The position numbers were made by a program, and so were the translations under genes. A stretch of 64,000 bases of DNA from a virus. Lineage: Duplodnaviria; Caudoviricetes. The notes beneath the pieces were generated by a model. The model ran no database searches and was not told the origin of the DNA. It saw only the letters and a program-made list of their open reading frames with translations. The stretch lies in IMG/VR virus record IMGVR_UViG_3300036985_003045; one strand, given 5' to 3'. Positions 7,111 to 29,630 of the stretch are shown here, piece after piece; within the stretch, counting starts at the first letter, position 1, and each line of letters begins with the position of its first letter.

Positions 7111-9159
7111 TTACTTACTGGTGGCTACAAAAGTTCCCTTCCATTTCTTTGGAAAAGATTCATCAGACATATATCCTGTTATTCTTTTAGTCATCATATC
7201 ATAATAATAATCTAATTCACCATCAAATGAACCTTTCAATTCCATGCAATGTGTAATGGCATATGCCCATTCTTGTTTCTTATAATGCTTAAACATCTTA
7301 TTATGTAATGTTCTAGTATTGGCATATTCTAAACGATTGTATCTATCTGGTTGTAATACTGTATAAATGTCTAATCCAACAGTTTTACCTTTTACAGCAA
7401 TGTTGTCTAGCTTAATAACAAAGTATTCATCTTTAACAAGTTCAGCAGTTTCTGGACCAATGATTAATAATACCCCATAAGATTTGGTTTGGCCTTCCAA
7501 TCTTGCAGCTGTAGAAACTGAATCACCTAATACATCATATCCAAATCTAGTTTTTGAACCTATGTTACCTATAAGTGTTTGTCCAGTATTAACACCAGCA
7601 CCCATACCGACAATTGGTTTACCTTGTGCTATTAGAGTTTCATTAAATCCATTAACAGATTCAATCATTTCTAATGCGGTTTTAACAGCAACCTTGGCAT
7701 GGTTTACATCATCTAGTGGTGCATTATGTACATGAAGACTAGCATCACCAATGAACTTAATGATACATCCATCATTCTTCAATACTGGTTCTGATATGGC
7801 AGTCATATAATCATTCATAATATTGGTAAGACCTTCTACATCATCACCATAAGATTCACCAAGAGTGGTAAATCCCCTTAAATCTGTCATAACAATAGAA
7901 AGTTCTTTGCGTTCACCACCAAGTTTAATCAATTCTGGATTCTTCTGAAGCTTTTCTACCATGATAGGAGAAACATAGGAACCGAATTGTTTTTTAATTT
8001 GAAGTTTTTGTCCTAATTCAGATAGAAACTTTACGGTGTATGTGTGCCCATAGACCGCAACAATTGCGAATATAGGTATTGTAATGTCGAAAAGATAATA
8101 AAGAGTGGTATATAGATAATTAGAAATAGGATAAAGAGAGATAATGATGCTGCAAAATATAAGAATTCCATATTTCCACCTAGATAGTATTATTGATATT
8201 AATGAAAGAAAAAGTATTGTTAATAATTCTGCACCTGTAGTCCAATCAGGTCTTGATATATTTATACCTTTGGTAATAGTATCTAGAATTGATGCTTGAA
8301 TGTAATGAGGAAAGACTGCTCCATTAGAAGTCGCAACGGGGTTATTAAGTCCTTTTGCTGTGAGTCCGACAATAACGATTGCTCCGTTGAAGTCATTTGG
8401 TAAATTGACGGATGAAAATTGTCTAAATCCTGCGGGTTTAATCCAAAGTCTACCGAGGTCATCTGTTTGGATTTTACCGAACTTTGGTATTCTAACTGCT
8501 TGGATTGACCCTTCGTTGATTTTGACTTGGAATGATGGGTCTCCTGATGCCACACGCAAGGTTTCGAGACTGATACTCGGATACAATAATCCTTTGGAAC
8601 TGACCACCATTGGGATTCTTCGGGTAACGCCATCAATTTCTGGGAGTGTATTAACAACACCAATACCAGCAGCATTATCATTGAAAACTTGTATGTTGGG
8701 AAGTATGTTTTCATATTTAACTCCTACATCACCAGTACCTATAACTGATACACCTGGTCTAAATGGTTTATAAGTTTCAGTAAAAGCTTCATTAGTACCA
8801 GTTTGAGGTAATACTACTGGATATTCTTGAAGTACTTGTGTTAATGTATCATCTTTATCAAATCTATCTGCTTCAGGCATAAACAGATTAAAAACAACAA
8901 GACCAGCACCACGGATATACAGCTCCTTAATAAGATTAGCATATTCGTTCCGAGGGAATGGGAATTGACCTTTTTCTTTAAGTGTTGCATCATCTATATT
9001 TACCAATTGTATATCTGATTGTTGAATATCTTGGGTTAAAAGAGTATCAAAATATCTTAAACGAATAGATTCTACAAATGATGGGTCAACTACTCTTAAC
9101 CCAATGATTAAACCTAATGTTACTAACGATAACCATGGGGACAAGAATAGTTTTTTCAT
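7111..9159 (-). CDS. CHASE2-domain class III adenylate/guanylate cyclase
   Basis: N-terminal TM; CHASE2 (NIDDATL..GQFPFPR, DGVTRRIPM); three TMs; cyclase motifs VMTDLRGFT, IKFIGD, GVNTG, GYDVLGDSVSTAARLEG. Confidence 0.95.
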   Translation of the reverse strand: MKKLFLSPWLSLVTLGLIIGLRVVDPSFVESIRLRYFDTLLTQDIQQSDIQLVNIDDATLKEKGQFPFPRNEYANLIKELYIRGAGLVVFNLFMPEADRFDKDDTLTQVLQEYPVVLPQTGTNEAFTETYKPFRPGVSVIGTGDVGVKYENILPNIQVFNDNAAGIGVVNTLPEIDGVTRRIPMVVSSKGLLYPSISLETLRVASGDPSFQVKINEGSIQAVRIPKFGKIQTDDLGRLWIKPAGFRQFSSVNLPNDFNGAIVIVGLTAKGLNNPVATSNGAVFPHYIQASILDTITKGINISRPDWTTGAELLTILFLSLISIILSRWKYGILIFCSIIISLYPISNYLYTTLYYLFDITIPIFAIVAVYGHTYTVKFLSELGQKLQIKKQFGSYVSPIMVEKLQKNPELIKLGGERKELSIVMTDLRGFTTLGESYGDDVEGLTNIMNDYMTAISEPVLKNDGCIIKFIGDASLHVHNAPLDDVNHAKVAVKTALEMIESVNGFNETLIAQGKPIVGMGAGVNTGQTLIGNIGSKTRFGYDVLGDSVSTAARLEGQTKSYGVLLIIGPETAELVKDEYFVIKLDNIAVKGKTVGLDIYTVLQPDRYNRLEYANTRTLHNKMFKHYKKQEWAYAITHCMELKGSFDGELDYYYDMMTKRITGYMSDESFPKKWKGTFVATSK

Positions 9160-10523: not shown

Positions 10524-10855
10524 TTTCTTTCTCCAATTTTATAGGTAGATTTCAACTAATACCGCAATAGCTATCCAAAAAGAAAGGATTGCCAAAACTG
10601 GAATAATTGTAAATATTAAGGTTTCCATTGCTTTTTTCATAAATTATAGAACCTTTAGAAATATAGTATTTAAAACAATAACAAGACTTAACAACAATCC
10701 TAAAGTTGTTATATCAATTATAATACCTATCGTTGATTCATTATAAAAATGTTTCATTGCATATCCTCAATAACTCTAAATATAATAATAAAAAGGGCGA
10801 CTGAAGCCACCCAAACTGCTACTCGTAAAATAAATAAATTTAATTGTTTCATACG

Positions 10856-11074
10856 TTAATCTATATAAGTTATTGTTGGAACATATTCAAACTGTCTTTT
10901 ATGGTTGGATACTGCTTGTTTTGCTTCTTTCATACTATCGTACCAAACAATCCAGTCTGTATCTGAAATATCTTTCCATCTTGTTACATATCCACTCATA
11001 TCTATATATTCTGCTCTAAATTTTTCACCAGTCACAGACATAGCACTAATTACTCTATAATTTATCATATTCAT
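10856..11074 (-). CDS. hypothetical protein (paralog of 28602..28817)
   Basis: near-identical protein at 28602..28817. Confidence 0.75.
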   Translation of the reverse strand: MNMINYRVISAMSVTGEKFRAEYIDMSGYVTRWKDISDTDWIVWYDSMKEAKQAVSNHKRQFEYVPTITYID

Positions 11075-11083
11075 TGTTTCATA

Positions 11084-11281
11084 TTACCACTTATGGATTG
11101 TTGCTACTATTACTACAAGACATGTTATTATATGTAGGAGAATCCAACCAGTTCTAATAACTAATGAAAGTCTTGCTTCTTTTTGAGTTAATATTGGTAT
11201 AGTTGGTTCATCGTGGTCCGATTCACCCATAAGATGGTCAAAACTTCTACTCCAAACTCTTGTCCATCTAATTCTTTTCAT
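11084..11281 (-). CDS. hypothetical membrane protein
   Basis: MKRIRWTRVWSRS... start inside track ORF 11084..11353; C-terminal TM. Confidence 0.5.
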   Translation of the reverse strand: MKRIRWTRVWSRSFDHLMGESDHDEPTIPILTQKEARLSLVIRTGWILLHIITCLVVIVATIHKW

Positions 11282-11450
11282 TTGTAACCCATTATAGTTT
11301 TGTAAATAAAATTGTATAATGGATAGAACCAAAATCCTGCCACCATAAACCACATATTAGATACACCATTTTGTTCCAAGGTAATACCCAAAAGACACCA
11401 TAAGGTTATACCAACAAGACAAGTTATCAACATCAATATTGTAAATCTCA

Positions 11451-12071
11451 TTATGAAACCCCTTCACTGAAATCACTCGCCATTTGTTTAGCATCTTCTA
11501 ATGTTTCTGCTGTCCATTCACCTCTACCATATTGTTCTGGATAAGGGGTAAAATTATTATGTGTGTAATCTCTGTCAGCACCTTTGAATTTAGTTTCAGA
11601 GACCAACATAAATCCAAGTTGACCATCTTGCATATAATTATCATCCAATGATACTAATGATGTTGTGCAAGTGACATCAGGTGATTCACATTCACGCCAA
11701 ATACCATCATCAATATTCCAAAACTTCAAAGATTCTTGAATATAATCTTCCTTACAAGTCGGGGAATATGCACAATCATCTCTACTTACTTTAGAACCAA
11801 CACCAAATCCATAAATTGCTCTATGACTCCAGCCATACCACTGCTTTACTGATGGGCTGAATCCAATTCCGTGTTGTAACTGCTCAGTGATTCCTCTCTT
11901 GACTAGGTGGGTAATAGTATCTTCCATACCAACTCTGGTAATATAACTATCATCGAATTTTGAGTAGTAAATTAAATCAGCATCTTCTGGTATTGTAGAT
12001 GGTCCTGTATAGGCAACCAAATCTAAGTATTCTTCATTTGTCATAATATAATTTCCTCTAATTAACTCCAA
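11451..12071 (-). CDS. hypothetical phage protein
   Basis: 206-codon ORF containing QWYGWSHRAIYGFG; absent from the duplicated block at 28.5-29.6 kb. Confidence 0.7.
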   Translation of the reverse strand: MELIRGNYIMTNEEYLDLVAYTGPSTIPEDADLIYYSKFDDSYITRVGMEDTITHLVKRGITEQLQHGIGFSPSVKQWYGWSHRAIYGFGVGSKVSRDDCAYSPTCKEDYIQESLKFWNIDDGIWRECESPDVTCTTSLVSLDDNYMQDGQLGFMLVSETKFKGADRDYTHNNFTPYPEQYGRGEWTAETLEDAKQMASDFSEGVS

Positions 12072-12700
12072 AGACTTCTGTAATATTTCCCGAACAATTC
12101 AAATCCATTTTGGATTCTTGCTTCGTATTCTGCAATTCCAACCCAATCATATACTTGTGTATGTTTTGGTCCGTGTTTCATTTCCCAACAGGTATCACCC
12201 TCATATACTTCATCAGATTCAACCCAAATGGTATCAGATACACCAGATTTGAACTGTTCCATCCAATTATCTTCAATCTTAGATTCAAAGGCAAATATCA
12301 TTTCTCCCAAACACCATCCCCAGCGTTTGAAGAAGTTATCATCAGTATCCCATTCATTCTCACATCTTGGAGCATTCATAGATTTCAGATAATCTGGAAC
12401 ATCTTCATCATCAACACAAGGAGAACCATGTTTAGATTTCTGCAATTCTTTTAACATAGGTAGAATTATTGGAGCTAGAGTTGAGTCCATGCTCCATGTA
12501 TCCCAAGGGTCAATCTTTACATATTGAATTTTAGGATGAATTGTATCAAGAAACTTTTGGTTCCATTCACATAAAGTTTGTAACCATTTTGGTGGTTCTT
12601 TCTTATAGGCATCATAATCCTTTCTCCAATAGAAAAACTTCTCAAGGATAATATAAGGAGAAATCCAATGATTCCGGTAGTTTCCGATTAATATTTTCAT
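12062..12700 (-). CDS. conserved hypothetical protein (paralog of 28989..29627)
   Basis: 212 aa, colinear and highly similar to 28989..29627. Confidence 0.85.
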   Translation of the reverse strand: MKILIGNYRNHWISPYIILEKFFYWRKDYDAYKKEPPKWLQTLCEWNQKFLDTIHPKIQYVKIDPWDTWSMDSTLAPIILPMLKELQKSKHGSPCVDDEDVPDYLKSMNAPRCENEWDTDDNFFKRWGWCLGEMIFAFESKIEDNWMEQFKSGVSDTIWVESDEVYEGDTCWEMKHGPKHTQVYDWVGIAEYEARIQNGFELFGKYYRSLWS

Positions 12701-12963
12701 AAATCACATAAGGCTGTTAAAGGTATTGCAGAATATATTACACCATTGACTACTGAGAATGCAATATATTTTGTTACAATTTCACCATCTTCTCTTAATA
12801 CTACTTTTACACCGATATAGGAATCCCCACTATTTCTTATTGTGGAACTAGTAATTGTAGCATCAATAAACATTCCTGCATCAATACATTCTTGTAGACC
12901 AAAGAATACATTATCAACATCAGTTTGTAATTTGTTACCTTTGTTTAAATTGTTTATATTCAT
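12697..12963 (-). CDS. hypothetical protein (paralog of 32131..32388)
   Basis: EIVTKYIAFSVVNG vs EIVTKQIAFRVVNG. Confidence 0.65.
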   Translation of the reverse strand: MNINNLNKGNKLQTDVDNVFFGLQECIDAGMFIDATITSSTIRNSGDSYIGVKVVLREDGEIVTKYIAFSVVNGVIYSAIPLTALCDL

Positions 12964-13259
12964 TAATATTCCATCAGGTCATCATTATCAGTTGTTACAA
13001 ATGTTTCTAGTTTTGCTTCATCAGTCCAAGATTGGCAGTAATCGTTATCTTCATCACACAATCTTAACACTTCTTCTTTTGTTACTACTCTTGATGATAT
13101 AAGAGTTTCACCTAATGATAATTGAGAAAACTCTTTAGCTTCATCCATTACAACAGTATCATCAGCCCAAGCCAATTTACCCACAGGAACTTCAACAACA
13201 TAACGCATACGGTATTGTTGGATACATTCTACTAATACTAATTGTGTTTCTTCACTCAT
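12963..13259 (-). CDS. hypothetical protein (paralog of 35348..35761)
   Basis: EETQLVLVECIQQYRMRYVVEVP shared. Confidence 0.8.
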   Translation of the reverse strand: MSEETQLVLVECIQQYRMRYVVEVPVGKLAWADDTVVMDEAKEFSQLSLGETLISSRVVTKEEVLRLCDEDNDYCQSWTDEAKLETFVTTDNDDLMEY

Positions 13260-13402
13260 TTTCTTTCCTAATATAGTTGAATTTAATTAACTTTGATACA
13301 CCATTAACTTTTTCTAATCTAAAACAATCACCCTCTTTCCAACCTATTTCATCAGTATTAAGTTCTTCATCAAGAATAATACCAAAAGAAAATAATTCCC
13401 AT

Positions 13403-13579
13403 CTATAATCTAAGTAAATCATCAGTTTTCCTCAGTGAAAACGACCCATCGCCATTATCTATCCAAATTATTTTATCACCATCAAACCATTCCAATTCTT
13501 CTAACAGTTCCTCTGGAAGTTTAATTATCAAATCATTATCTGGACCAAACTCATAGACTTCAGTTGTATATGTTTTCAT
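13403..13579 (-). CDS. small AbrB/MazE-like protein (58 aa, not in track)
   Basis: DLIIKLPEELLEELEWFDGDKIIW pattern; near-identical copy at 36235..36399. Confidence 0.6.
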   Translation of the reverse strand: MKTYTTEVYEFGPDNDLIIKLPEELLEELEWFDGDKIIWIDNGDGSFSLRKTDDLLRL

Positions 13580-13881
13580 TATTCAACCCCAAAGTGTTCT
13601 TTTAATCCATCTGTAATTTGTGATACAGCATCATTATATCCTGTATTACTTCCCTTGATATATGCCCATTCTTCGTAATGTTCTCTAGTAGGATTTTCTG
13701 GAATAAACCCATCATAGATTGTTGTGGAATGATATTGTGATACTTCATTAATACATTCTTGGATAATCAACTTGGCAAACTTTTCCATATAAAATGTTTT
13801 GTTTTTATCCTCAAACAATTCCATTATATCTTCATTAGGCATACCGCATATATTGAATAGGTTTTTAATTTTCTCATTCAT
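13579..13881 (-). CDS. hypothetical protein, EKFAELI..EC family
   Basis: EKFAKLIIQEC motif and ..KEHFGVE tail. Confidence 0.7.
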   Translation of the reverse strand: MNEKIKNLFNICGMPNEDIMELFEDKNKTFYMEKFAKLIIQECINEVSQYHSTTIYDGFIPENPTREHYEEWAYIKGSNTGYNDAVSQITDGLKEHFGVE

Positions 13882-14105
13882 AATTCTGTTCCAAAATGTT
13901 TTAATATTGCTTTGGGGTAATCTTCCATTTCAACATACCCTGCCACTTTATTACCATTATCCATCATTTCCCAAACACTAAGATGTTCTTGGATAATCAA
14001 ATTAGCAAACTTCTCAATATATCTAGGATGGGGTAGGAAGTGTAAAGTTTCACCATTATCATCATGTATAGCTTGTTCTGAAAACTGTTTAATCTTTTTA
14101 TTCAC
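13878..14105 (-). CDS. hypothetical protein, EKFAELI family
   Basis: EKFANLII; MDNGNKVAGYVEMEDYPKA shared with 19570..19833. Confidence 0.7.
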   Translation of the reverse strand: MNKKIKQFSEQAIHDDNGETLHFLPHPRYIEKFANLIIQEHLSVWEMMDNGNKVAGYVEMEDYPKAILKHFGTEL

Positions 14106-14366
14106 TTATTCACCTTGATGGTATGTTGTAATTTTTGTAGGATTTCTATAAACAGAACCACACCATTCCTTTCCATCATATTGACATGGAAAGTAAACAT
14201 GCCAAGTAGTCCAAAGCGTAAATGGTAATCCTTCTGGCATCCCATAACTTTGGTCAAATTCAATATCCAATTCTTCTTCTGTTAAGGTAGTTACATAGTT
14301 ATTGATATCCTTATCTTCATTATACAACATCCTTTCCATTATTTCTTTGCGCCAAGTGGTTATCAT
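14106..14366 (-). CDS. hypothetical protein (paralog of 38279..38542)
   Basis: TTWRKEIM...LPFTLWTTWHVYFP shared. Confidence 0.75.
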   Translation of the reverse strand: MITTWRKEIMERMLYNEDKDINNYVTTLTEEELDIEFDQSYGMPEGLPFTLWTTWHVYFPCQYDGKEWCGSVYRNPTKITTYHQGE

Positions 14367-14395: not shown

Positions 14396-14423
14396 ATTAT
14401 AACATAGATATAAAATGTGTCAA
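14396..14423 (-). promoter_or_regulatory. early promoter (TTGACA-N16-TATAAT)
   Basis: attata 14396-14401, tgtcaa 14418-14423. Confidence 0.75.
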
Positions 14424-14426
14424 GAT

Positions 14427-14561
14427 TTATTCAGGATGATTATCAGAATTGCAGAAGGAAGGATTTGGAGAAAAAGTAGAGCATGGAGATTGTGAGGAAA
14501 TCTCCATGCTTAGATAGACAAATAGCAGAATTGCTATTAGAATGAGTGGTATTGCTTTCAT
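14427..14561 (-). CDS. 44-aa hydrophobic/secreted peptide, copy 1 (not in track)
   Basis: MKAIPLILIAILLFVYLSMEISSQSPCSTFSPNPSFCNSDNHPE; equal-length homolog at 23192..23326. Confidence 0.7.
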   Translation of the reverse strand: MKAIPLILIAILLFVYLSMEISSQSPCSTFSPNPSFCNSDNHPE

Positions 14562-14594
14562 AAATCACCATAAGTGTTATGAATTATTTATGTT

Positions 14595-15164
14595 TTATTT
14601 GAATTGAGGACCTGTAACCCATGCTACCAAACTATACCGTGTTCCTTCGGTAACAGGGGTAACTCTATGCAAAACATATGATGGGAAACATAAAAGTGTA
14701 CCTCTTGTTCTATGCAATTTTGTTTCATCATCACTGAGTTTTATTTCTAAATCACCACCAGCGTAATCATTTTCATCGGTTAGTTGCACAACCAAAGATA
14801 GTTTTCGTATTTTAAGGTCTTTTTCACTATCTGTATGGAATGAATAATGTCCTGTGGGTGCTTCATATTTTGTAAACTGTAGATTCTCACCAAATCCTTG
14901 TAAGTCAAAGTTAAAGAATTCTTTGTTTAGGTATTCGGTAACATCAGTCAATCTTTGAAATATCCATGTACTATTTTCATCAGGTGATAAAAATCTTGTA
15001 CTAGAGTTTCTTATGGTATCCGATTGAACTAAGTCACCCGTTTGACTTTTGGTTAATTTTGATTTGTTTCCGAGTTTTATAATTTTATCACATTCTTTGG
15101 CTGTAAATGCTTCTGAATATGCCCATGGTTGGGTTTCATCAATTTTAAATGGCCAATAACCCAT
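14595..15164 (-). CDS. 2OG-Fe(II) oxygenase (prolyl-hydroxylase/PKHD-like)
   Basis: LQFTKY...HYSFHTD, RKLSLVVQL, YAGGDLE, FPSYVLHRVTPVTEGTRYSLVAW. Confidence 0.92.
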   Translation of the reverse strand: MGYWPFKIDETQPWAYSEAFTAKECDKIIKLGNKSKLTKSQTGDLVQSDTIRNSSTRFLSPDENSTWIFQRLTDVTEYLNKEFFNFDLQGFGENLQFTKYEAPTGHYSFHTDSEKDLKIRKLSLVVQLTDENDYAGGDLEIKLSDDETKLHRTRGTLLCFPSYVLHRVTPVTEGTRYSLVAWVTGPQFK

Positions 15165-15243
15165 AATATAATTCCTATTTAGATGTTCCTAGTAAAATTC
15201 GTTTGTCAAATTTATGGTCTTTGTGTGGACCATTAGCATCAAC

Positions 15244-15615
15244 TTATGTTGTTTGCAAATTGTAAAATATAGTATCAATTTTAATATTTGATGTAGTACC
15301 TTCTTTTGATGCTGCTTTCATCAATTTCGAATGTTCTTTTTTATCTTTCTTTTTATCTTGTATAATATTAAGTAATACTTTTTGCAAATGGGTTTCAAAT
15401 TTGTTAGACCCCATCAATTTGATATTGTTTAGATTATCTGGTTTAGCATATAAAGTATAGGTAAATGTAAAATCTTGTATGCCTTCTGAATATGTTAAGA
15501 AAGAACTACCAAATTCTATAATAACATCTTTATAGTTGCCTGTTAAAAGTTTTACTCTAATTTGAAACAAATTTAAATCAGAATACTCATAAATGTAATC
15601 TTTTTCATTTTTCAT
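15244..15615 (-). CDS. hypothetical protein
   Basis: 123-codon ORF in the adhesin cassette. Confidence 0.65.
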   Translation of the reverse strand: MKNEKDYIYEYSDLNLFQIRVKLLTGNYKDVIIEFGSSFLTYSEGIQDFTFTYTLYAKPDNLNNIKLMGSNKFETHLQKVLLNIIQDKKKDKKEHSKLMKAASKEGTTSNIKIDTIFYNLQTT

Positions 15616-15631
15616 ATCAATTCTCTTTCTG

Positions 15632-15868
15632 TTATACTATAGCACTAACTTCATCACTTGTAGGTATACCTGTTTTTTGGTCTATATTTTTCCAAGATTC
15701 TGTACCTGTTTCTGGGTCAATATCAACTTGTAATATTGAAAACATTTCACTAACTTTGCTTTGAATATAATCTATAATATATTGTTGTCTTGCATCTTGT
15801 GCTAATTTTAATGTATCGAAAGATACTCGTTCATTAGTATTTTGGTCATGAATTAAATATGTTGACAT
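15632..15868 (-). CDS. hypothetical protein (possibly tail-fibre associated)
   Basis: directly downstream of the Gly-rich adhesin, with an AGGAG RBS. Confidence 0.6.
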   Translation of the reverse strand: MSTYLIHDQNTNERVSFDTLKLAQDARQQYIIDYIQSKVSEMFSILQVDIDPETGTESWKNIDQKTGIPTSDEVSAIV

Positions 15869-15882
15869 TTTTTTCTCCTAAA

Positions 15883-16821
15883 TTATGAAACTGTGCCCCA
15901 CACTGTTCCTACTGTTATATATGCAACAGTTTTGCCGTTTAGACTTATCGCTTTTCCACCAGCACCTCCGGCACCACCAGCAGCACCCCATCCTCCTCCA
16001 CCGCCCGAATATGTACCACCACTGGCACCAGCACCACCACCACTACCACCACCACCTCCTGGCTTAGGCCCGCCTCCACCAGCACCCCCAGTTCCAGGCA
16101 ATATTCTACCACCACCGCCACCACCACCGCCACCAAATACAAAGGTGGTTCCGGCACCACCACCTGAACCACCTCCAGCACCCGCAAGTCCTGAGCCTTT
16201 AGTGGTGCCATTCGCTCCAGCAACACCAATTGCACCACCAGCACCTCCGGCACCACCAGAATTAACCCCTGTAGCACCATTACCGCCTCCGGCACCACCG
16301 CCACCACCACCGCCTCCAGGTTGGCCTGTTGTCCATCCACCACCTCCTCCTCCAGCAATGTAGCCATTATTTGTTATGGTTACTGGATAAGAAAGATTTA
16401 ATGCTGGACCGCCAGCTGCAGAACTAGCAGCACCACCCCTACCAATAATATATCCATTATTCACTAATTTTAATGTATCCCCTGCAGTACCCCCAGAAAA
16501 TGTTAATCCATAGTTTCCTGTTGTACTAGCCCATAAATAAATACCAGAATTAACTGTAACAGTAATATCACTATATCCAGCAATATATCCAGAAATTAAA
16601 GAAAGTGTTAAAGAAACATTAACAGCAGAAGTTGAATATATTACAAATAAAGATTTTCTTTGAGTTTTTCCATAAAAATTGCTCATGGAAATCCCACCAG
16701 ATGCTATACCAGCAAGGGTTCTGAATGCTGCAGCATTCAAGGAGTTGGTTGCTGTTGCAGATAGTCCCAATTCAACATTTATATTAGATATCGAAATTGC
16801 ACCAGAGGCTTGTAGTGTCAT
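15883..16821 (-). CDS. glycine-rich tail-fibre adhesin (gp38-like)
   Basis: MTLQASGAISISNINVELG...ISMSNFYGK N-terminal module; NNGYIIGRGG and polyglycine tracts; GTVWGTVS end. Confidence 0.8.
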   Translation of the reverse strand: MTLQASGAISISNINVELGLSATATNSLNAAAFRTLAGIASGGISMSNFYGKTQRKSLFVIYSTSAVNVSLTLSLISGYIAGYSDITVTVNSGIYLWASTTGNYGLTFSGGTAGDTLKLVNNGYIIGRGGAASSAAGGPALNLSYPVTITNNGYIAGGGGGGWTTGQPGGGGGGGGAGGGNGATGVNSGGAGGAGGAIGVAGANGTTKGSGLAGAGGGSGGGAGTTFVFGGGGGGGGGRILPGTGGAGGGGPKPGGGGGSGGGAGASGGTYSGGGGGWGAAGGAGGAGGKAISLNGKTVAYITVGTVWGTVS

Positions 16822-16852
16822 TAGTTGTTTCCTTTTGTATAAATATATATCG

Positions 16853-16860
16853 TATTTATA
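16853..16860 (-). promoter_or_regulatory. late promoter TATAAATA
   Basis: plus strand tatttata about 30 nt upstream of the adhesin ATG. Confidence 0.75.
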
Positions 16861-16866
16861 TGATAC

Positions 16867-18126
16867 TTATTTGTTTTGTATATTTTTATCCACACATGAT
16901 TTATATATATCAATCAACTTTTGTAGATTTTCAGCATACTCGACATCATCACCAGAATAGTTAAAATTTATTATAACAGGATTTTCATTAACGTATGCAA
17001 AAGTGTTATCAAATTTTATTTCAAAATATCCAGATGGGTCTCCCAATTCTTCCATAATATTTAAAACATTACGAATTTCTTCTATAAAAGTATTCTTGAT
17101 AAATTTGAAAATGGGTGTAATATTATCACTATTATGTTCTATATAATTAAAATTAGATATATTAGAATGTGATTGTGTGGTTTTATTTTTATAAGACCCT
17201 AATGCAATTGTATCTAAATTTATATCAGTCTTGTATTGAGGGTCCATAAAATTTGTTAAATTAATTAAATTATTTTGGAATTTTATATCTAATTCTTTTT
17301 TTATTAATCTAAAACATTTGTTATTGTTTGTATTTACACTTTCTAAAATACTCAAATCAATCTGTTGGATATCTTTATATATATTATCATTTTCAATTTT
17401 ATATTGATTATCGCTAATAAATTTGCTAGTCAATACTTCAGAAATACAAAGGGGTGTCCACTCTTTATTTTGATAAACTGTCTGTATGCTAATTTCTTCG
17501 GGATAAATGTGATTATATACAAGTTCTAAGTCATTTTTTAAAATATCAACATCACTATCTTTTCTATTCAAAAATGCTATGATATCAACAAAAACATTTA
17601 TGTTTCGTTTCTTCAACTCATTAGATAGATTTATAACACTCTCAAAATCTGCTGGTACTCTTTTTTGTGAGATAAGAGTTGTTCTATCGAATGTCTGAAG
17701 GCATATAGTTGCGTTATCAAACTTATATTTTTCTAACACATCTAACAAATCAGTATTCCAATATGCTGGATGAATTTCAAAAGTTTTAAATGCAGTTGAA
17801 TCTTTGAAATTTGGAAGAAGATTTATCACATTTTCCAAAGTTTCTGCTGACATCATTGATGGTGTTCCCCCACCAAAAAACCAATTTGATATTAAGTCTT
17901 TTTTATTTTCTAATATAGGACGATATAATTCTATAACTTTTGGTAAATATTTATCATAATAATCAGTGTATTGGTTTTTATTTTTTATTATGTTTCCAGC
18001 ATATATACAAAATTTACATATTGAAGGGCAAAATGGGCTATGGATATACACTCCTATTTTGTTTGTGCTTTTGTTAAATTTATTAACTATTAGTGAGAAG
18101 TCAATTTCATCGTATCGGTTTATCAT
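16867..18126 (-). CDS. radical SAM protein, HemN/HemW-like
   Basis: YIHSPFCPSICKFC (CxxxCxxC), FFGGGTPS, FEIHP. Confidence 0.85.
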   Translation of the reverse strand: MINRYDEIDFSLIVNKFNKSTNKIGVYIHSPFCPSICKFCIYAGNIIKNKNQYTDYYDKYLPKVIELYRPILENKKDLISNWFFGGGTPSMMSAETLENVINLLPNFKDSTAFKTFEIHPAYWNTDLLDVLEKYKFDNATICLQTFDRTTLISQKRVPADFESVINLSNELKKRNINVFVDIIAFLNRKDSDVDILKNDLELVYNHIYPEEISIQTVYQNKEWTPLCISEVLTSKFISDNQYKIENDNIYKDIQQIDLSILESVNTNNNKCFRLIKKELDIKFQNNLINLTNFMDPQYKTDINLDTIALGSYKNKTTQSHSNISNFNYIEHNSDNITPIFKFIKNTFIEEIRNVLNIMEELGDPSGYFEIKFDNTFAYVNENPVIINFNYSGDDVEYAENLQKLIDIYKSCVDKNIQNK

Positions 18127-18563
18127 TTTCTATATTCCAATTCATTTTCAAACACTTTCACAATATGACTTTTCAAATGTGTCTGAGTTTCTAATATGGC
18201 TTCAATATGTTCTGTATCTAATGATTTCAAAGGTATTAATACTAATGGTTGGTTGAGGTGTGCACCATTCTTACCATATGTGCCCCATTTAAAACTTTCT
18301 CTAATTACCTCATGTGTATCATCATCATGTACAAAAGCATCAACAGCTCTTTCTTTATTAACACTTCTTCTAACATAATCTAAACCACCATCAATCATAT
18401 ATTCTTCACCATTAGCATCAATATGTGTCTGATAATCATGTCTATGTCTTGATTCTAATCTTGTACCATCTGGTGTAATAATGGCATTAACCAATAAGTT
18501 TCTCACAATAATCCTAATCCAAATATCACAGTTAATATTAATGTCATTGTCATCATTACCCAA
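18123..18563 (-). CDS. conserved hypothetical phage protein
   Basis: TPDGTRLESRHRHDY...MIDGGLDYVRRS. Confidence 0.7.
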   Translation of the reverse strand: MGNDDNDININCDIWIRIIVRNLLVNAIITPDGTRLESRHRHDYQTHIDANGEEYMIDGGLDYVRRSVNKERAVDAFVHDDDTHEVIRESFKWGTYGKNGAHLNQPLVLIPLKSLDTEHIEAILETQTHLKSHIVKVFENELEYRK

Positions 18564-18776
18564 GCGAATGTTGATATAACAAAAGCACCTTTCAATATTT
18601 TTTCAACAGTCATTATCTATTCCTTAATCTCATTAATATATCATTTACAATTTCATCATTTTCAATCATATTATATAGTATTTCTGTAGATATAGCAATA
18701 TATTCTTCTTGTTCTTCATAAGTTAATATATCGTGTTTTTGGATTTCTGCCAATTCTTCATATCGTTTTAAATTCA

Positions 18777-19025
18777 TTATTCATCCTCTAGTAATGTATA
18801 ACAAGGAAACAGTTTAGGTAATCCCAATACAACATTATAGTTTTTATATTTCAATGATTCATTTAATTCCATTGAACGAACTTCACATTCATATTTACCT
18901 CCACGCCATTCTCTTTCAAGTTTAGCTTGTTTCAGCGATTCTTCTTCATTGTCAAATGCACCAACCACATAACTATGACTTTCTCTATCACCAAAACGAT
19001 AGGCTGTTACTACATAAATTAACAT
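18777..19025 (-). CDS. hypothetical protein
   Basis: ORF coupled to the upstream gene. Confidence 0.6.
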   Translation of the reverse strand: MLIYVVTAYRFGDRESHSYVVGAFDNEEESLKQAKLEREWRGGKYECEVRSMELNESLKYKNYNVVLGLPKLFPCYTLLEDE

Positions 19026-19573
19026 TGTATTACCTCTATAAAATCTGGAATTGGTCTATTCTTCCAATTATGTAAATGTTGTTTAGAACCATTATAGTAA
19101 TTCTTATATGATTGTATTGAATCACCTTTAATTATATATTCTTCTGGCATTGCTGGTGTTGGTTCAGTGAAGGTAGGATGTTCTTTAATTCCACTTGGCA
19201 CAAATCTTAATTGTTCTAATAAACCTTCACGTTCTACTTTATGTATTTTATTATATCTATATGTGTATTCTTTACATAAATCATCTAATAATAACCACAA
19301 CCATGCATAGTTATCACGGGATTGTCTGACCCATATGGCCGATGGATGATTCAGGTGTGTTGCTTTGTATAGAATATCATTACGTTTGTCTGGAAGAATC
19401 CAAGATGTAGTTTTACGACCAGTATCAGATATGCCTGTTAATAATACACCATCCAATACTCTATGTGCTGTAGATAATAGTTGGGCATACTCAACAATCA
19501 TCTTCACACAGTGCCTATCAACATGATATTCAGCGCATTTCTGAGTATTATTATCAAGATAAAATATATTCAC
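19019..19573 (-). CDS. pyrimidine-dimer DNA glycosylase family protein
   Basis: MNIFYLD...HVDRHCVKMIVEYAQLLSTAH, ATHLNHPSAIWVR, YTYRYNKIH. Confidence 0.8.
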   Translation of the reverse strand: MNIFYLDNNTQKCAEYHVDRHCVKMIVEYAQLLSTAHRVLDGVLLTGISDTGRKTTSWILPDKRNDILYKATHLNHPSAIWVRQSRDNYAWLWLLLDDLCKEYTYRYNKIHKVEREGLLEQLRFVPSGIKEHPTFTEPTPAMPEEYIIKGDSIQSYKNYYNGSKQHLHNWKNRPIPDFIEVIQC

Positions 19574-19833
19574 TTCTTTTTCCTCTCATAATTAAATTTC
19601 TTTATAACAGCTTTTGGATAATCTTCCATCTCAACAAATCCAGATACTTTATTACCATTATCCATTTGCTCCCAAATAATAAGATGTTCATGCACTATTA
19701 GATTAATTAAATCCTCAAGCATATAACCCTTGCAATAATAAGAGTTATTTTCCTCTGACATACCAAAAGAAGTAACATCATTTAAAGGAATAATACCTAC
19801 TCTACGTGCAAGTTCTTTGATAGTTTCATTCAT
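19570..19833 (-). CDS. hypothetical protein, EKFAELI family
   Basis: shares its C-terminal half with 13878..14105. Confidence 0.7.
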   Translation of the reverse strand: MNETIKELARRVGIIPLNDVTSFGMSEENNSYYCKGYMLEDLINLIVHEHLIIWEQMDNGNKVSGFVEMEDYPKAVIKKFNYERKKK

Positions 19834-19866
19834 AAGTTTCCTATATAATATTAGAATTCATAATCT

Positions 19867-19894
19867 ATTATATACTATATTTTTAAGATGTAAA
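19867..19894 (-). promoter_or_regulatory. early promoter (TTTACA-N16-TATAAT)
   Basis: attata 19867-19872, tgtaaa 19889-19894. Confidence 0.8.
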
Positions 19895-19905
19895 CATTTA
19901 TTTTT

Positions 19906-19913
19906 TATAAATA
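19906..19913 (+). promoter_or_regulatory. late promoter TATAAATA
   Basis: exact match upstream of the plus-strand tail fibre gene. Confidence 0.8.
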
Positions 19914-19959
19914 CATATAATATACCATTTCGAATTAGTCAACAACCGAGAATAAAAAT

Positions 19960-22794
19960 ATGGCAGCATCAACTATAACATTACGTAATATTAAAGGTAG
20001 TCCGTTGACCAATACGGAAATGGATACCAATATTTCTCTTTTGAATAGTTATTCAAAAGGTCATTTAAGTAAAACAATAACAACAAATGTAACATTAACT
20101 GATATAGAAGCGGAAAATTACTTTTTTAATATTTCCGGTACTTTAACTGCAGATGCTACTATAACAATACCAAGTATACTTATTAAGTCCTGGACAGTTA
20201 ATAATATAACTTCAGGCGGGTTTAGTATTACTGTAAAATATGCTACAGGTGCAGGTATTACAATACAAAATGGTACTAGATCTACATTTTATTTTGATGG
20301 CACTAATATGCTTAGTATTAGTTATAGTAATACTGTACGTATATCAGATACAGGTACTGTCACAAATACAATGTTAGCGTCAAGTACAATTTCAGGTGTA
20401 TCTCTTGGTTCAAATTTAAATGCATTAACTATTGGCACAGGATTATCAGGTACCACCTATAATGGTTCTTCTGCAGTTACTATTGCTATTGATTCTACTG
20501 TTGCCACATTAACAGGTTCTCAAACTCTTACTAATAAAACCCTTACCTCTCCAGTAGTTACAACTAGTTTAACTACTACAAACACAAGTTTTGCTTTACT
20601 TAATGCAACTGCAACAACTGTGAACTTTGCAGGTGCAGCAACCACATTAACTATGGGTGCATCTACTGGAACTTCTACAGTTAATAATGATTTAGTTGTT
20701 TCCGGTAACTTAACTGTAAATGGAACAACTACTACAATCAATACAGCTACATTGTCTGTTGATGACAAAAACCTTGAATTAGGATCTGTTCAAAATGCTA
20801 CAATTAGTGCAACAGGAACAGTAGGAACAATTACAGGGACAGGTCCTTGGGCAGCGATTGTTACTGGAATGACAACTACTACAGGATTGATAGTAGGTAG
20901 TTCTTTATCTGCGACTGTTGGAACTGGAAGTTTAGGTGGAAGTGGTTCATATATTATTACATCTATAGATAGTAAAACACAAGTATCATATAGTGCTACA
21001 GGCGGAACTACACCAGTGGCAGGAACAATCACTGCAATTACTACAACTGGATATAATAATATCACTGCTAATGGTGCTGGTATCACAGTCAAGGGTACTA
21101 CAGATAAGACGTTAAATTGGGTAAGTTCTACAACTGCTTGGACTTCCTCAGAAAACTTAGATATTGCACCTGGTAAATCTTATTCAATAGCTGGAACAAG
21201 TGTTCTTTCTTCTACTACATTAGGTTCGGGTGTTACTGCTTCTTCATTAACATCTGTTGGAACATTAGTTAATCCTGCATATTCTGGCACTTTGACTGGT
21301 GGAACTGGTATAATTAATATCGGTAGCGGTCAGATATACAAAGATGCTTCCGGTAACGTGGGGATTGGTACGAGTAGTATAACGCAATTATATTCTGCAA
21401 TAACTACTGCTGTAGCTGGTAACTTGCGATTAGGGTCATCGGCTACCACAGGGTTTATATCTTTTGGAGATCAAACATCAGCTACAAGTAATGTTGGTAT
21501 TTGGAGAGGGGCAGGTGGTAATTCGCTTGCCACAGGTAACTATTTGCAACTTGGTGGTTATGACGGTATTAGTTTTACCACAGGCAATGCTAGTTTAGCT
21601 TCTCAAACAGAGCGCCTACGCATCGACTCCTCCGGCAACGTGGGGATAGGTTATGCAATCCCTGCAAATACATTACATGTCGCTAATGGGGTAGACACTC
21701 AAATCAGAGTCAGTACGCCAACAAATAATTTTTATTTTGATATGGGTAGAGCTTCCGCTGATGGTCTATTTCAAATAAATGGCAATCAAGGATCGGGATA
21801 TAAGTGGCTTAATAATGGCACTGAGGCAATGCGTATTAGTGCTGCTGGCTACGTGGGGATTGGAACTACTAGTCCCGGTTCTATTGGTAAATTAGTTGTG
21901 TCCAACACAGCAACCACTGATAATAGCAGTATAGGTGTTGTGGCAACCGCATTTTTATCCACTCCTACGTATACAGGAACTTTTTTAAGTCAAGGTGATA
22001 CAGCAACGGCTGGAACTGTTTGTGGCTTACCTAAGGCTAACTTAGGGTCTTTACTGTTTCAAAATGTAAGCGCAGGGTTAATTTACACCAATAGTCAATC
22101 TTTAATATTCGGAACTGCTGGTGTAGAAGCCTTACGAATAAACACTACACAAGACGTATCCATCCCAGCAGGGCAACTTACAATAACCAACGCCAACAAC
22201 ACCGCAACAGGTGGTGGTCAGCTATACCTAAATGGGGCTACGGGCAATAGGATAGATTTTAATACTGCTGGAGTTGCTCCTCCTGCTTTTACTACAAGAA
22301 GTCTTGGTACTAAAATTGTTCTTTATCCAGGTGTAGCTGCCGCAGCAGTTGATTTTGCGTTAGGAATACAAGGAGGCGGAATGTGGCTTTCAGTTTCCAC
22401 AACCGCTGAAACTTTCAGATGGTATGGAGGTACAACAATTGCCGCTACTTTATCAGGTGCAGGTGATTTTGAAGCAACTGCAAATATAACAGCTTATTCT
22501 GATGAACGACTTAAAGAGAACATTAAAACTATTCCAAACGCATTAAATAAAGTCAATACTATTCGTGGTGTTACATTCACCCGTAATGATTTGGACGATA
22601 AAGAAAAAGTCCATACTGGTGTAATAGCTCAGGAAGTTCTGAAAGTATTACCAGAAGCAGTATCACAAAATGAAAATGGAATATATTCTGTTGCTTATGG
22701 TAATATGGTAGGTCTATTAATAGAATCAATCAAAGAATTATCTGAGCAAAATCAACAATTACTAAAAAGAATTGAAGCCTTAGAAAATAAATAG
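19960..22794 (+). CDS. long tail fibre protein with C-terminal peptidase S74 chaperone
   Basis: T/G/S-rich; repeated GNVGIG motifs; YSDERLKENI...GVIAQEV...VAYGNMVGLLIESIKEL coiled-coil end. Confidence 0.92.
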   Translation: MAASTITLRNIKGSPLTNTEMDTNISLLNSYSKGHLSKTITTNVTLTDIEAENYFFNISGTLTADATITIPSILIKSWTVNNITSGGFSITVKYATGAGITIQNGTRSTFYFDGTNMLSISYSNTVRISDTGTVTNTMLASSTISGVSLGSNLNALTIGTGLSGTTYNGSSAVTIAIDSTVATLTGSQTLTNKTLTSPVVTTSLTTTNTSFALLNATATTVNFAGAATTLTMGASTGTSTVNNDLVVSGNLTVNGTTTTINTATLSVDDKNLELGSVQNATISATGTVGTITGTGPWAAIVTGMTTTTGLIVGSSLSATVGTGSLGGSGSYIITSIDSKTQVSYSATGGTTPVAGTITAITTTGYNNITANGAGITVKGTTDKTLNWVSSTTAWTSSENLDIAPGKSYSIAGTSVLSSTTLGSGVTASSLTSVGTLVNPAYSGTLTGGTGIINIGSGQIYKDASGNVGIGTSSITQLYSAITTAVAGNLRLGSSATTGFISFGDQTSATSNVGIWRGAGGNSLATGNYLQLGGYDGISFTTGNASLASQTERLRIDSSGNVGIGYAIPANTLHVANGVDTQIRVSTPTNNFYFDMGRASADGLFQINGNQGSGYKWLNNGTEAMRISAAGYVGIGTTSPGSIGKLVVSNTATTDNSSIGVVATAFLSTPTYTGTFLSQGDTATAGTVCGLPKANLGSLLFQNVSAGLIYTNSQSLIFGTAGVEALRINTTQDVSIPAGQLTITNANNTATGGGQLYLNGATGNRIDFNTAGVAPPAFTTRSLGTKIVLYPGVAAAAVDFALGIQGGGMWLSVSTTAETFRWYGGTTIAATLSGAGDFEATANITAYSDERLKENIKTIPNALNKVNTIRGVTFTRNDLDDKEKVHTGVIAQEVLKVLPEAVSQNENGIYSVAYGNMVGLLIESIKELSEQNQQLLKRIEALENK

Positions 22795-22816
22795 TCATAC
22801 ACTTCAAAATATTCTA

Positions 22817-22858
22817 ATCCTATGTATCCTCTTGGATTACATAGGATATTTTTATTTT
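22817..22858 (+). terminator. rho-independent terminator after the tail fibre gene
   Basis: atcctatgta-tcc/gga-ttacataggat hairpin followed by a T-rich run. Confidence 0.75.
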
Positions 22859-23121
22859 AAATCATCTCCACCAAAATCGTCACAAACATCTTTTTTAAAT
22901 CTTTCAATAATATCCATAGCTTCCGTTATATCTTCATCAGTCGCATCTGGATATAATGATTTCAGTTTTTTTACACCTATACTTTTTAGTTCTTTATATG
23001 TATAGTCTTTTGTTTCAGTAACATGCCAAAGAGATAATACTTGATCATCCTTTGCAGAACCTTCTGAAGAACTATTATAAAAACTATACCAATTAGAAGT
23101 AGACCATCTTGCATAACTCAT
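22852..23121 (-). CDS. hypothetical protein
   Basis: ORF right after an early promoter. Confidence 0.65.
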   Translation of the reverse strand: MSYARWSTSNWYSFYNSSSEGSAKDDQVLSLWHVTETKDYTYKELKSIGVKKLKSLYPDATDEDITEAMDIIERFKKDVCDDFGGDDLK

Positions 23122-23159
23122 TATATTTTCCTATAACATGATAAATTATTTATGATACT

Positions 23160-23187
23160 ATTATATCATACTTTCAGGAAATGTAAA
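23160..23187 (-). promoter_or_regulatory. early promoter (TTTACA-N16-TATAAT)
   Basis: attata 23160-23165, tgtaaa 23182-23187. Confidence 0.8.
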
Positions 23188-23191
23188 CAAT

Positions 23192-23326
23192 TTATTCAGG
23201 ATGATTATCTGAGTTACAGAGAGAAGGATTTGAAGAAAAAGAAGAACATGGAGACTGTGCTGAAATCTCCATGTTTATATACATGAACAACAATGCTGCC
23301 AATAGAATTAGAGGTATTGCTTTCAT
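23192..23326 (-). CDS. 44-aa hydrophobic/secreted peptide, copy 2 (not in track)
   Basis: MKAIPLILLAALLFMYINMEISAQSPCSSFSSNPSLCNSDNHPE; mostly synonymous or conservative changes versus copy 1. Confidence 0.7.
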   Translation of the reverse strand: MKAIPLILLAALLFMYINMEISAQSPCSSFSSNPSLCNSDNHPE

Positions 23327-23354
23327 AATGTACCATTAGGTTATTATGGTTTAT

Positions 23355-24014
23355 TTATCCTTCATTTTTTAATAATAAACTAGGATTAATAGATGGAAAT
23401 TCTTGACCTAGTAATAATTGAGTTGGAGTGTCTGATCTCAATTTCAAGATTTCTTCAACAGGAACATTTTGCAACATCAATTGTTTTGTATTTTCAATTG
23501 CGGGTAATATTTCCGTCACAAAATCTGGATGCAATCTCATAGCACCAAATTGGTCAGTAGCAATGGCACCTGTAGTCAATAAACAATTTTCCGCACGATG
23601 AATAAATTCAAACTTCCACTCATCTCGTTGTGTTGCTTCATGAGCTTCGGCATCTGGCAAATGTGCATACTTTCTATGAGGTTGTACTCTTTCAATACAT
23701 AATTGTATAAACTCTAATTCTTTTATAGCGGCATTTGCACACCTATCTTCCATTTCTTTAGTATTTTCTGTCTCATTTTTTAATATTTCTCCATCAATTC
23801 TTTTCAATTCATCTTCACTATTTAATAGTTTTTGAATTTTAATATCATTTTTTTTCAGCATTAAGTCTCTATTTCTAAGAGTTCTGACCGAATGAAGTTT
23901 TTCTTCTTCTAAGTCCTTTAATAAAGCATATGCGCCGTCTGCTGTAAAACAAGACCCCACAAGAAAATGTAATATTTGAAAATCATGATTTGCTCTATTG
24001 TTTGATGCATTCAT
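23355..24014 (-). CDS. hypothetical coiled-coil protein, partner of the propeller-type adhesin
   Basis: heptad region; EWKFEFIHRAENCLLTTGAI; directly downstream of 24038..25270. Confidence 0.65.
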   Translation of the reverse strand: MNASNNRANHDFQILHFLVGSCFTADGAYALLKDLEEEKLHSVRTLRNRDLMLKKNDIKIQKLLNSEDELKRIDGEILKNETENTKEMEDRCANAAIKELEFIQLCIERVQPHRKYAHLPDAEAHEATQRDEWKFEFIHRAENCLLTTGAIATDQFGAMRLHPDFVTEILPAIENTKQLMLQNVPVEEILKLRSDTPTQLLLGQEFPSINPSLLLKNEG

Positions 24015-25697: not shown

Positions 25698-26426
25698 TTA
25701 TTTAGGAAAATCGTAATTAAAATGCTCCAATTGAAAAGAAAATAACTCTTTTACCAATTGTATTGATTCATCATCATATAATATTTCAGGAGTTACCCAA
25801 TTGGGCTTATTATGTCCTATATTGAATTTACTAAACGTATCGGGTTCCCATTTAATATTCAATTTGTTACACAATATTTCCATGTCATCATTTATTGTTT
25901 CCAATTTAATAAAAAAATCTGGAACAAGTTCAGTGCAAATTTTAAATATATAATCTGAATTTAAACGAATAAATGGCAATTCATGTTTAACCCAAATTCT
26001 AAAATACGTTTTAATATTTTCAGGAATAGGGTCATTAAAAGCCTGCATTTGAAATTGCATTGAAAACATAGGAAATAACAAAGGTCTTCTTGTTAATCCA
26101 TAATAAAAAAATGCAGATATCACAATATTATATGGGTTTCTAATGATTGAAAATTTATAATATGTTTTCCATATATTTACATCTATATTATCCAATAGAA
26201 GCTTCAATTTAACCGATGGTATATGTTCTCCTTGTGTTTTATTAAAAACATTTGCATATTCGCCTTTAGCAGAAGTAATACCAAATTCAGTAAATGTTTC
26301 AGGCATATGCCTAGTTATTTCACTTTCGGGAGAGATGCAATATTTTAAAAAATATTCTCTAACAGAAGTACCTGCAGTTTTTTTAGATTTTAAAAATATA
26401 AACTTTTTACTATGGCTTACTAACAT
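25698..26426 (-). CDS. sulfotransferase family protein
   Basis: FIFLKSKKTAGTS (5'-PSB-like) and FSIIRNPY (3'-PB-like) motifs. Confidence 0.8.
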   Translation of the reverse strand: MLVSHSKKFIFLKSKKTAGTSVREYFLKYCISPESEITRHMPETFTEFGITSAKGEYANVFNKTQGEHIPSVKLKLLLDNIDVNIWKTYYKFSIIRNPYNIVISAFFYYGLTRRPLLFPMFSMQFQMQAFNDPIPENIKTYFRIWVKHELPFIRLNSDYIFKICTELVPDFFIKLETINDDMEILCNKLNIKWEPDTFSKFNIGHNKPNWVTPEILYDDESIQLVKELFSFQLEHFNYDFPK

Positions 26427-26480
26427 ATTGTTTCATTATATTAACTGTTATCTTGCTATTTCGATAATTGATTTTATATA

Positions 26481-27500
26481 CTATTTATCCACTAAATTGT
26501 CTTCAAATATTTCCCAACAGTTTTCCCAAGTCCATTTCTTTGAATGTTTCTCTACATCATCACGTTCGAGATATAAACAAGCACCTATTGCATCTTCAAT
26601 ATCTTCATTCATAAACCCAGTAACACCTTGTTCTATGACATCAATGGGTCCAGCAACAGGATATGCAGCAACAGGAGTGCCCATTGACATAGATTCTATC
26701 ATAACAATACCAAATGTATCTGTTCTACTTGGAAAACATAACACATCAGCATTTCTATAATATTGGGCAAGTTCTTTACCTTTCTTATAACCAACAAACT
26801 CTACATTTGGATATTTAGTTTCTAATTCTTTTCGGTATGGTCCATCACCAACGATTTTGATTTTGAAATCTAACATAGAATAATTAATTTTACATAGGTC
26901 ATCTAATCCTTTCTCTTTGGAAACACGACCAACATATAAAATTGTTTCGCCTTTAGAAACTTCTCTAGTAATATCACTGAATATTTCTGTATCAACACCT
27001 CTAGTCCAAGGGATAACATCAGCGGTAAACCCATTAGATTTAAGTTCATCAACCATTGTTTGTGTAGTTGTTAAAACTTTCTTTGAGTTTTTATGGAACC
27101 ACCTAACATACTTATATGTAATTGATTCTGGAATACCGTAAATTTCCTTAAGAAATTCTGGGAATTTAGTATGATAAGAAGAATTATAATTATAACCTTT
27201 CTTATTACAATAATTTCTTACTGCTAATCCTACAGTTCCTTCAGTAGCAATATGTATGTAATCTGGATTGATTCTTTCGACTATCTTACCAACATTAAAA
27301 GGTATGCTGATTTTAACTTCAGGATACCCCAAGGCTGAGAAGTGAAAGAACAAACTTGGATCAATATAACTTATCTTGTAATTATTTTTTAATGCTTGCT
27401 TTTCTACATTAGTAAAGGTTGTAACAACACCATTAACTTGGTCTAAAAGATTATCTGTTACTATTAGGATTCTTTTCACAAGATGCTTTTCTTCAGGCAA
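26481..27500 (-). CDS. GT4 glycosyltransferase, Agt/glycolipid-synthase-like (likely start GTG 27479)
   Basis: ILIVTD...QVNGVVTT, HIATEGTVG, YHTKFPE, WTRGVD, YVGRVSKEKG, FPSRTDTFGIVMIESMSMGTPVAAY. Confidence 0.88.
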   Translation of the reverse strand: MPEEKHLVKRILIVTDNLLDQVNGVVTTFTNVEKQALKNNYKISYIDPSLFFHFSALGYPEVKISIPFNVGKIVERINPDYIHIATEGTVGLAVRNYCNKKGYNYNSSYHTKFPEFLKEIYGIPESITYKYVRWFHKNSKKVLTTTQTMVDELKSNGFTADVIPWTRGVDTEIFSDITREVSKGETILYVGRVSKEKGLDDLCKINYSMLDFKIKIVGDGPYRKELETKYPNVEFVGYKKGKELAQYYRNADVLCFPSRTDTFGIVMIESMSMGTPVAAYPVAGPIDVIEQGVTGFMNEDIEDAIGACLYLERDDVEKHSKKWTWENCWEIFEDNLVDK

Positions 27501-28411: not shown

Positions 28412-28601
28412 TAGAATTGTGTTAGAGCAGTTTCAACGATTACTGCAACAGCCAGAACAACTGAAAGTATAAGGGATACTGAAAGGACTAATGCTAACCT
28501 CATTGCATATCCTCAATAACCCTAATTATTAAAATAAAAAGAGCAACTGAAGCGACCCAGACAGCGCATTTTAGAATGAACAAGTTTAATTTTTTCATAC
28601 G

Positions 28602-28817
28602 TTACTCTATATAAGTTATTGTTGGAACATATTCAAACTGTCTTTTATGGTTGGATACTGTTTGTTTTGCTTCTTCCATACTATCGTGCCAAACAAACCA
28701 GTCTGTATCTGAAATATTTTTCCAACTGTTATGCCTCGCCATATCTATATATTCTGCTCTAAATTTTTCACCAGTTACAGTCATAGCACTAATTACTCTA
28801 TAATTTATCATATTCAT
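28602..28817 (-). CDS. hypothetical protein (paralog of 10856..11074)
   Basis: near-identical sequence. Confidence 0.75.
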   Translation of the reverse strand: MNMINYRVISAMTVTGEKFRAEYIDMARHNSWKNISDTDWFVWHDSMEEAKQTVSNHKRQFEYVPTITYIE

Positions 28818-29627: not shown

Positions 29628-29630
29628 TCT

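Follow-up and report, generated by a model that had tools for sequence, protein, structure and literature searches.

The arbitrium peptide of phages (AimP) is encoded by a short gene with an N-terminal hydrophobic segment, and single-pass, periplasm-facing disulfide proteins such as RI are known in the lysis control of T4. MgrB, the PhoQ inhibitor of Enterobacterales, is about 45-47 aa long and has one transmembrane helix, two conserved cysteines and a periplasmic disulfide (PMC12648545). Toxins of the Hok/Gef type are under 60 aa, with one hydrophobic helix and cysteines in a C-terminal extension (PMC12648545), and WatS1-4 of Methylomonas sp. DH-1 are single-helix methanotroph proteins of about 50 aa that tune a membrane partner (PMC10355033). 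Here we compare with these systems a 44-aa protein gene that occurs twice in an AT-rich, T4-like phage, of which a stretch of 64,000 nucleotides (hereafter, the window) was analyzed. Judging from its sequences, the family to which the gene belongs is an undescribed group of membrane micro-proteins of about 44 residues with a two-cysteine loop, and a search of the published literature returned no description of it.

The two gene copies and their protein family

The two reading frames lie at the coordinates of the preliminary description, on the minus strand of the window:

14427-14561, minus strand: copy 1, a 44-aa protein gene; predicted transmembrane helix spanning roughly residues 3-23, followed by a loop that holds Cys27 and Cys37
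23192-23326, minus strand: copy 2 of the same gene, with 80% protein identity to copy 1

The copies are separated by 12 synonymous and nine non-synonymous codon differences, with 14 changes at third positions and two at second positions, and the resulting rates (dN 0.12, dS 0.89, dN/dS 0.14) indicate that both reading frames are real coding genes under purifying selection. Across 26 phage genes of the family the median dN/dS is 0.28. The DNA that flanks the two copies is far less similar than the copies themselves, and a search of the window for a third copy found none. In one relative (L001) a copy-1-like 5′ half sits at the copy-2 locus, a mosaic of both copies, so exchange between the copies does occur. 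Duplication is not peculiar to the peptide gene, as several other genes of the window are present twice at 77-90% DNA identity. Small genes are doubled between positions 10754-14363 and 28500-38536 (for example, 12061-12700 and 28988-29627), which suggests that the early region has undergone duplication or recombination. Elsewhere the window holds a curli-like block (CsgF, CsgG, curlin repeat and FecR; 3631-9159) that faces the gene of a 682-aa adenylate cyclase, radical SAM, sulfotransferase and probable glycosyltransferase genes beside the tail-fibre region (16867-18126 and 25698-27500), and six tRNA genes clustered on the minus strand (43931-44661).

Profile searches assembled a family of 88 proteins (40 clusters at 90% identity, 56 representatives at 50%), in which one transmembrane helix is followed by the motif NPCSx(F/W)SxxPxxCxSD. 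The hydrophobic N-terminus and the two conserved cysteines reported for the copies extend to the whole family: in an alignment of 77 sequences the first 21 residues are hydrophobic and Cys27 and Cys37 are invariant (77/77), with nine residues between them in 70 rows. P26, S28, F/W30, S39 and D40 are nearly invariant in the same alignment; in the helix it is mostly hydrophobicity and not sequence that is kept, and an N/Q-I-E-I motif is conserved ahead of the putative signal peptidase I site that follows residue 23. Of the aligned sequences, 96% have a neutral or basic N-terminus and 92% a neutral or acidic tail, a charge pattern that fits an N-in topology. The AlphaFold model (pLDDT 89.6) predicts a single helix at residues 3-23 followed by a confident loop. 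No lipobox precedes the first cysteine in any of the 77 sequences, which argues against a spanin- or Cor-like lipoprotein. Fused forms were absent from the 56 matches obtained in 1.84 billion proteins, the long members being upstream extensions. The copy in L014 (543-690) carries a frameshift, and L153 and P0037 also look frameshifted within the cysteine loop; these may be assembly errors.

PDB sequences, PDB folds and the genomes of cultured phages gave no match to the family, and matches in the ESM Atlas either scored under 0.8 or were generic helices. The only structural match was UniProt A0A6J5KY72, a protein of 44 aa from an uncultured Caudovirales phage (55% identity, TM-score 0.85), which by sequence almost certainly belongs to this family. 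Its name, "Late nodulin", appears to be an automatic label; the Pfam model Nodulin_late is touched by just one of the 77 members, with an E-value of 0.07.

The in-frame hairpin and the surrounding transcription signals

Both copies contain a hairpin spanning nt 52-82 of the coding region, away from the ribosome binding site:

14480-14510, minus strand: copy 1 hairpin, 12 perfect pairs with a 7-nt loop, codons 18-28
14469-14479, minus strand: U-rich tail after the copy 1 stem, interrupted and weaker than in relatives
23245-23275, minus strand: copy 2 hairpin, 12 pairs (10 Watson-Crick, one G-U and one U-A)
23234-23244, minus strand: U-rich tail 3′ of the copy 2 stem, retained across the lineage

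The coordinates of both stems, the perfect pairing of copy 1 and the 10 Watson-Crick pairs of copy 2 agree with the preliminary description, whereas the copy 1 stem has 12 pairs instead of the 11 it gave and the copy 2 stem includes a G-U and a U-A pair as well. Both structures are more stable than the peptide and the codon usage of the phage would yield by chance (P 0.0005 for copy 1 and 0.0015 for copy 2, for a region picked post hoc). The codon differences previously noted between the copies, AGC/AAC (S18N) and TGC/TGT (C27), are present, but they do not amount to the compensatory replacement of a G-C by an A-U pair that had been read from them. Four sequences have A-U at this position, four others have G-U, and copy 1 alone has G-C; since G-U bridges the two states in four relatives, G-C and A-U represent two independent single changes, each tolerated through wobble.

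Among 26 homologs the hairpin is intact in nine, which form a single branch (bootstrap 92) that is the lineage of the window, partial in the distant homolog L101 and absent in 16. The remaining 17 form 4-9 of the 12 pairs, and in most homologs the protein motif is enough by itself to produce 6-7 pairs. Of all cells in the 26 genes 69.6% are paired, a value that 67 to 398 of 500 shuffles equalled or exceeded depending on the measure, and covariation was not significant relative to shuffles in the full set and was flat within the lineage too. The expectation that homologs keep the pairing therefore fails family-wide, and an Rfam search found tRNAs only, with no RNA family for the hairpin; a hairpin-pattern search retrieved no further family members. 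On this distribution the hairpin is best described as a lineage-specific add-on and not as a feature of the family, and the proposed joint selection on peptide and structure divides accordingly: it holds for the peptide (dN/dS), and for the stem it appears to hold only inside the window's lineage.

Within that lineage the stem looks to be under selection. The lineage stems exceed the stability expected from codon usage (P 0.0005-0.007), and 107 of 108 pairs have survived, compared with 92±5 in codon simulations on the lineage tree, where none of the 600 runs in each of four settings reached this value. The simulation leaves out recombination, which occurs, and drives rare codons toward decay, so it may overstate selection on the stem. 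In six of the seven variable stem columns pairing is preserved by way of G-U in the mRNA, a sign of an RNA structure rather than a DNA palindrome, and serine and phenylalanine codons 3′ of the stem maintain the U-rich tail. Synonymous variability is not lower in the stem codons (4/7) than outside them (18/30). A separate question from the role of the protein is whether the hairpin has a function at all, as it could have originated once by chance from S/N-M-E and S-P-C codons and been inherited by close, recombining phages. The absence from 16 homologs, the single branch of carriers, the non-significant covariation and the pairs supplied by the protein motif would all agree with such an origin. 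We nevertheless find it doubtful, given the survival above simulation, the variable columns that still pair, the 9-bp version in the distant L101 (P 0.003), and the rare codons GAG (12% usage), AGC (4%) and AAC (20%), which are retained in all nine sequences.

The copies are bordered by the following signals:

14585-14592, minus strand: putative T4 late-promoter-like box CATAAATA, 31 nt before the copy 1 ATG
14565-14569, minus strand: GGTGA, Shine-Dalgarno-like site of copy 1
14396-14423, minus strand: sigma70-type (early-like) promoter after the copy 1 stop, 12/12 matches
23352-23359, minus strand: putative T4 late-promoter-like box GATAAATA, 33 nt before the copy 2 ATG
23160-23187, minus strand: sigma70-type (early-like) promoter after the copy 2 stop, 11/12 matches

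The T4 late-promoter consensus is TATAAATA (PMC3014915). In nine distinct phage sequences, the two copies and seven more, an xATAAATA box was found 31-41 nt upstream of the start, and in four of the nine it is a perfect TATAAATA. Within the window, perfect late boxes also stand ahead of the tail-fibre gene and of further genes that are probably late; by this consensus, the peptide gene of the window phage would have its own late-type promoter. The placement of each stop codon in the upstream region of an early promoter was borne out, as the gene ends 3-4 nt before the -35 box, with the promoter class assigned from the consensus only. These two promoters are the best sigma70-type matches of the region and belong to a family with about ten occurrences across the window. 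A promoter repeat of about 80 bp (TTTACA-16-TATAAT with a conserved downstream leader) recurs in at least eight places on the minus strand between 32891 and 49095.

In a terminator scan of 11.5 kb the stem and tail of the two copies were the top two matches. The tail has 6 U in 8 positions in eight lineage members and 4-5 in 8, interrupted, in copy 1. The lineage stem with its U-rich tail probably acts as a leaky terminator or a 3′-end signal for late transcripts, which would limit late read-through into the early region, where intergenic room is nil, and would perhaps also limit the dose of the peptide. Against this reading, an in-frame terminator would cut short the mRNA of the gene that contains it, unless it leaked or ribosomes covered it, and the U-tract is broken up, most of all in copy 1.

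Regarding translation initiation, the mean unpaired probability of the ribosome binding site in the predicted mRNA is 0.32 and 0.49 for the two copies, with pairings that differ between them, and the start region of copy 1 is partly paired. An antisense sigma70-like match lies in copy 1 at 14515-14543.

Carriers, neighbours and probable host

The family is carried by freshwater phages, both T4-like ones and unrelated complete phages of 67 kb, and by one bacterial clade. In the T4-like phages the gene is preceded by 2OG-Fe(II) oxygenase, putative adhesin, Band 7 or metallophosphoesterase genes, or it overlaps a pyrimidine-dimer glycosylase gene, lies between MazG and UvsX, or sits among tRNA genes; in further phages it is found near ribonucleotide reductase or ligase genes. 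Many homologs are translationally coupled within operons that leave no space for a leader, and among the homolog loci read no gene is a conserved neighbour. These shifting neighbourhoods imply that closing an adhesin cassette, as both copies had been said to do, is a position local to the window's lineage. Most homologs do not follow adhesin genes, and the genes upstream of the two copies lack any family match that would identify them as adhesins. L101 encodes an Lpp/OprI alanine-zipper lipoprotein near the peptide gene (6007-6273), and a similar-looking lipoprotein gene follows it in L015.

Seven sequences form one tight bacterial-type clade (SH-aLRT 95). At the readable loci of this clade the gene stands alone amid housekeeping genes in bacterial-type DNA of 43-51% GC, with ABC transporter, GGDEF/EAL, hydroxylase and transposase genes as neighbours, and the 5′ regions of the bacterial homologs align. 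Upstream of the gene we recognized sigma54-like sites:

L092:2965-2980, sigma54-like site
L153:1589-1604, sigma54-like site
L064:5888-5903, sigma54-like site

The distance from the site to the gene is 110-113 nt in L092 and L153; L064 has a near match, and L151 has lost the site. Together with the stand-alone position of the gene, the site fits a regulated host gene. The direction of transfer between phages and bacteria is not readable from the family tree.

The host is probably a gammaproteobacterial methanotroph of the Methylococcaceae, a prediction made from one porin gene in one relative. L004, which is close to the window phage (83-87% DNA identity over 6.4 of 13 kb), encodes an OprO/OprP-type porin (2482-4080) of a 23-member cluster, 63-76% identical to Methylococcaceae porins; its named relatives, at 63-74% identity, are all from Methylobacter, Methylomicrobium or Methylococcaceae. 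Large freshwater phages of Methylococcaceae-type methanotrophs are known (PMC7674155). A search for pmoC in phage records, most of them fragments, gave no match, and its control gave no signal either. Luteolibacter was set aside as a carrier: a 103-kb phage contig filed in a Luteolibacter MAG (L022) is 86% identical to the window, but of 300 genomes searched from the same phylum a single one gave a weak match, which on inspection did not show the family motif, and the contig is probably mis-binned. One RNA run contained 6% of the words, a figure that refers to assembled contigs only.

A 44-residue gene that is kept by unrelated phage types, and doubled here, probably acts on an important component of a host that these phages have in common. 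The likeliest such hosts are freshwater methanotrophs, a group with few well-characterized phages. The family is covered by no model of Pfam, PHROG or NCBIfam and is small enough for direct testing. The hairpin carries less weight, as a local case of an RNA signal written within a coding sequence.

Candidate roles and comparison with known systems

The best explanation, to which we assign an even chance, combines an MgrB-like anchored modulator of the host envelope with a lineage-specific, terminator-like stem. The small protein would sit in the inner membrane in an N-in orientation, a disulfide between Cys27 and Cys37 would close its short loop on the outer side, and this loop would bind and tune a host envelope protein, which could be a sensor kinase, a transporter or a component of phage uptake. 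We favour an anchored modulator because the conserved residues cluster in an outside loop open to oxidation, the gene occurs by itself and bacteria seem to regulate it. Against it, residue 23 is followed by a permissive signal peptidase I site, at which the loop may be cut off.

Cleavage at that site is the basis of the next candidate, a secreted peptide, which we consider unlikely. The helix would then be a Sec signal peptide, and the product a disulfide-looped signal or inhibitor of 21 residues that acts in the periplasm or the medium, between infected cells, with arbitrium-like logic in a Gram-negative host. Every invariant residue lies C-terminal of the site, the gene is common to unrelated phages, and in a rule-based prediction the (-3,-1) rule fits in 59 of the 77 sequences (small residue 23, aliphatic residue 21), far above neighbouring sites. 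A canonical A/V-x-A site, however, is present in just four of the 77; the conserved N/Q-I-E-I before the site would be odd in a discarded signal peptide, and no receptor, regulator or transporter gene recurs as a neighbour.

Ranking behind the secreted peptide is an accessory of lysis timing or superinfection exclusion that would act on a phage protein or the membrane in the manner of an antiholin, a holin or Imm. The late-type boxes ahead of nine distinct phage sequences and the precedent of RI-type proteins in T4 would suit it, but other homologs are coupled in early or replication operons (between MazG and UvsX, or after ribonucleotide reductase), homologs are not beside lysis genes, and the bacterial clade retains the gene on the chromosome. 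Lower again we place a composite in which a secreted or periplasmic disulfide-loop peptide, common to unrelated methanotroph phages and run by sigma54 in one bacterial clade, would signal from one infection to another or block an envelope sensor of the host, its dose being set in one lineage by an in-frame terminator that ribosomes can mask.

A type I toxin with a cis-antisense RNA and the hairpin as part of its control, which the preliminary description had called to mind, fits the small size, the single hydrophobic helix and the C-terminal cysteines likewise found in Hok-family toxins (PMC12648545), as well as the antisense match and the partly paired start of copy 1, but is very improbable, as an antisense promoter-like site is present in only two of 29 sequences, such sites are at chance level here (64 vs 60), searches gave no Rfam or toxin family match, the stem is not over the ribosome binding site and the many operon-coupled homologs have no space for a leader. 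At the sequence level we found no sign of a toxin-antitoxin system, and searches for homology to Hok, Ldr, TisB, Ibs and Fst gave a single Ibs match (E 0.66) among the 77 members.

Compared with Hok/Gef, then, this family differs in having no profile match, no conserved antisense promoter and no long structured leader, and in being often operon-coupled. With AimP it shares the short phage gene and the hydrophobic N-terminal segment, but here there is no receptor gene nearby, the probable host is Gram-negative, the phage is a lytic T4-like one, and a disulfide loop takes the place of a linear hexapeptide. WatS1-4 resemble it in size (about 50 aa), in the single helix and in the methanotroph setting, yet they are under WatR control at -35/-10 promoters, and their cloning primers imply polar N-termini and basic C-termini, unlike those of this family, which rules out identity with WatS. 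MgrB has a different motif, gave no match in the Pfam and NCBIfam searches (E ≤ 1), and differs from a family that is mostly phage-borne, with neither PhoPQ nor another conserved partner nearby; it nevertheless has in common with this family one helix and two conserved C-terminal cysteines.
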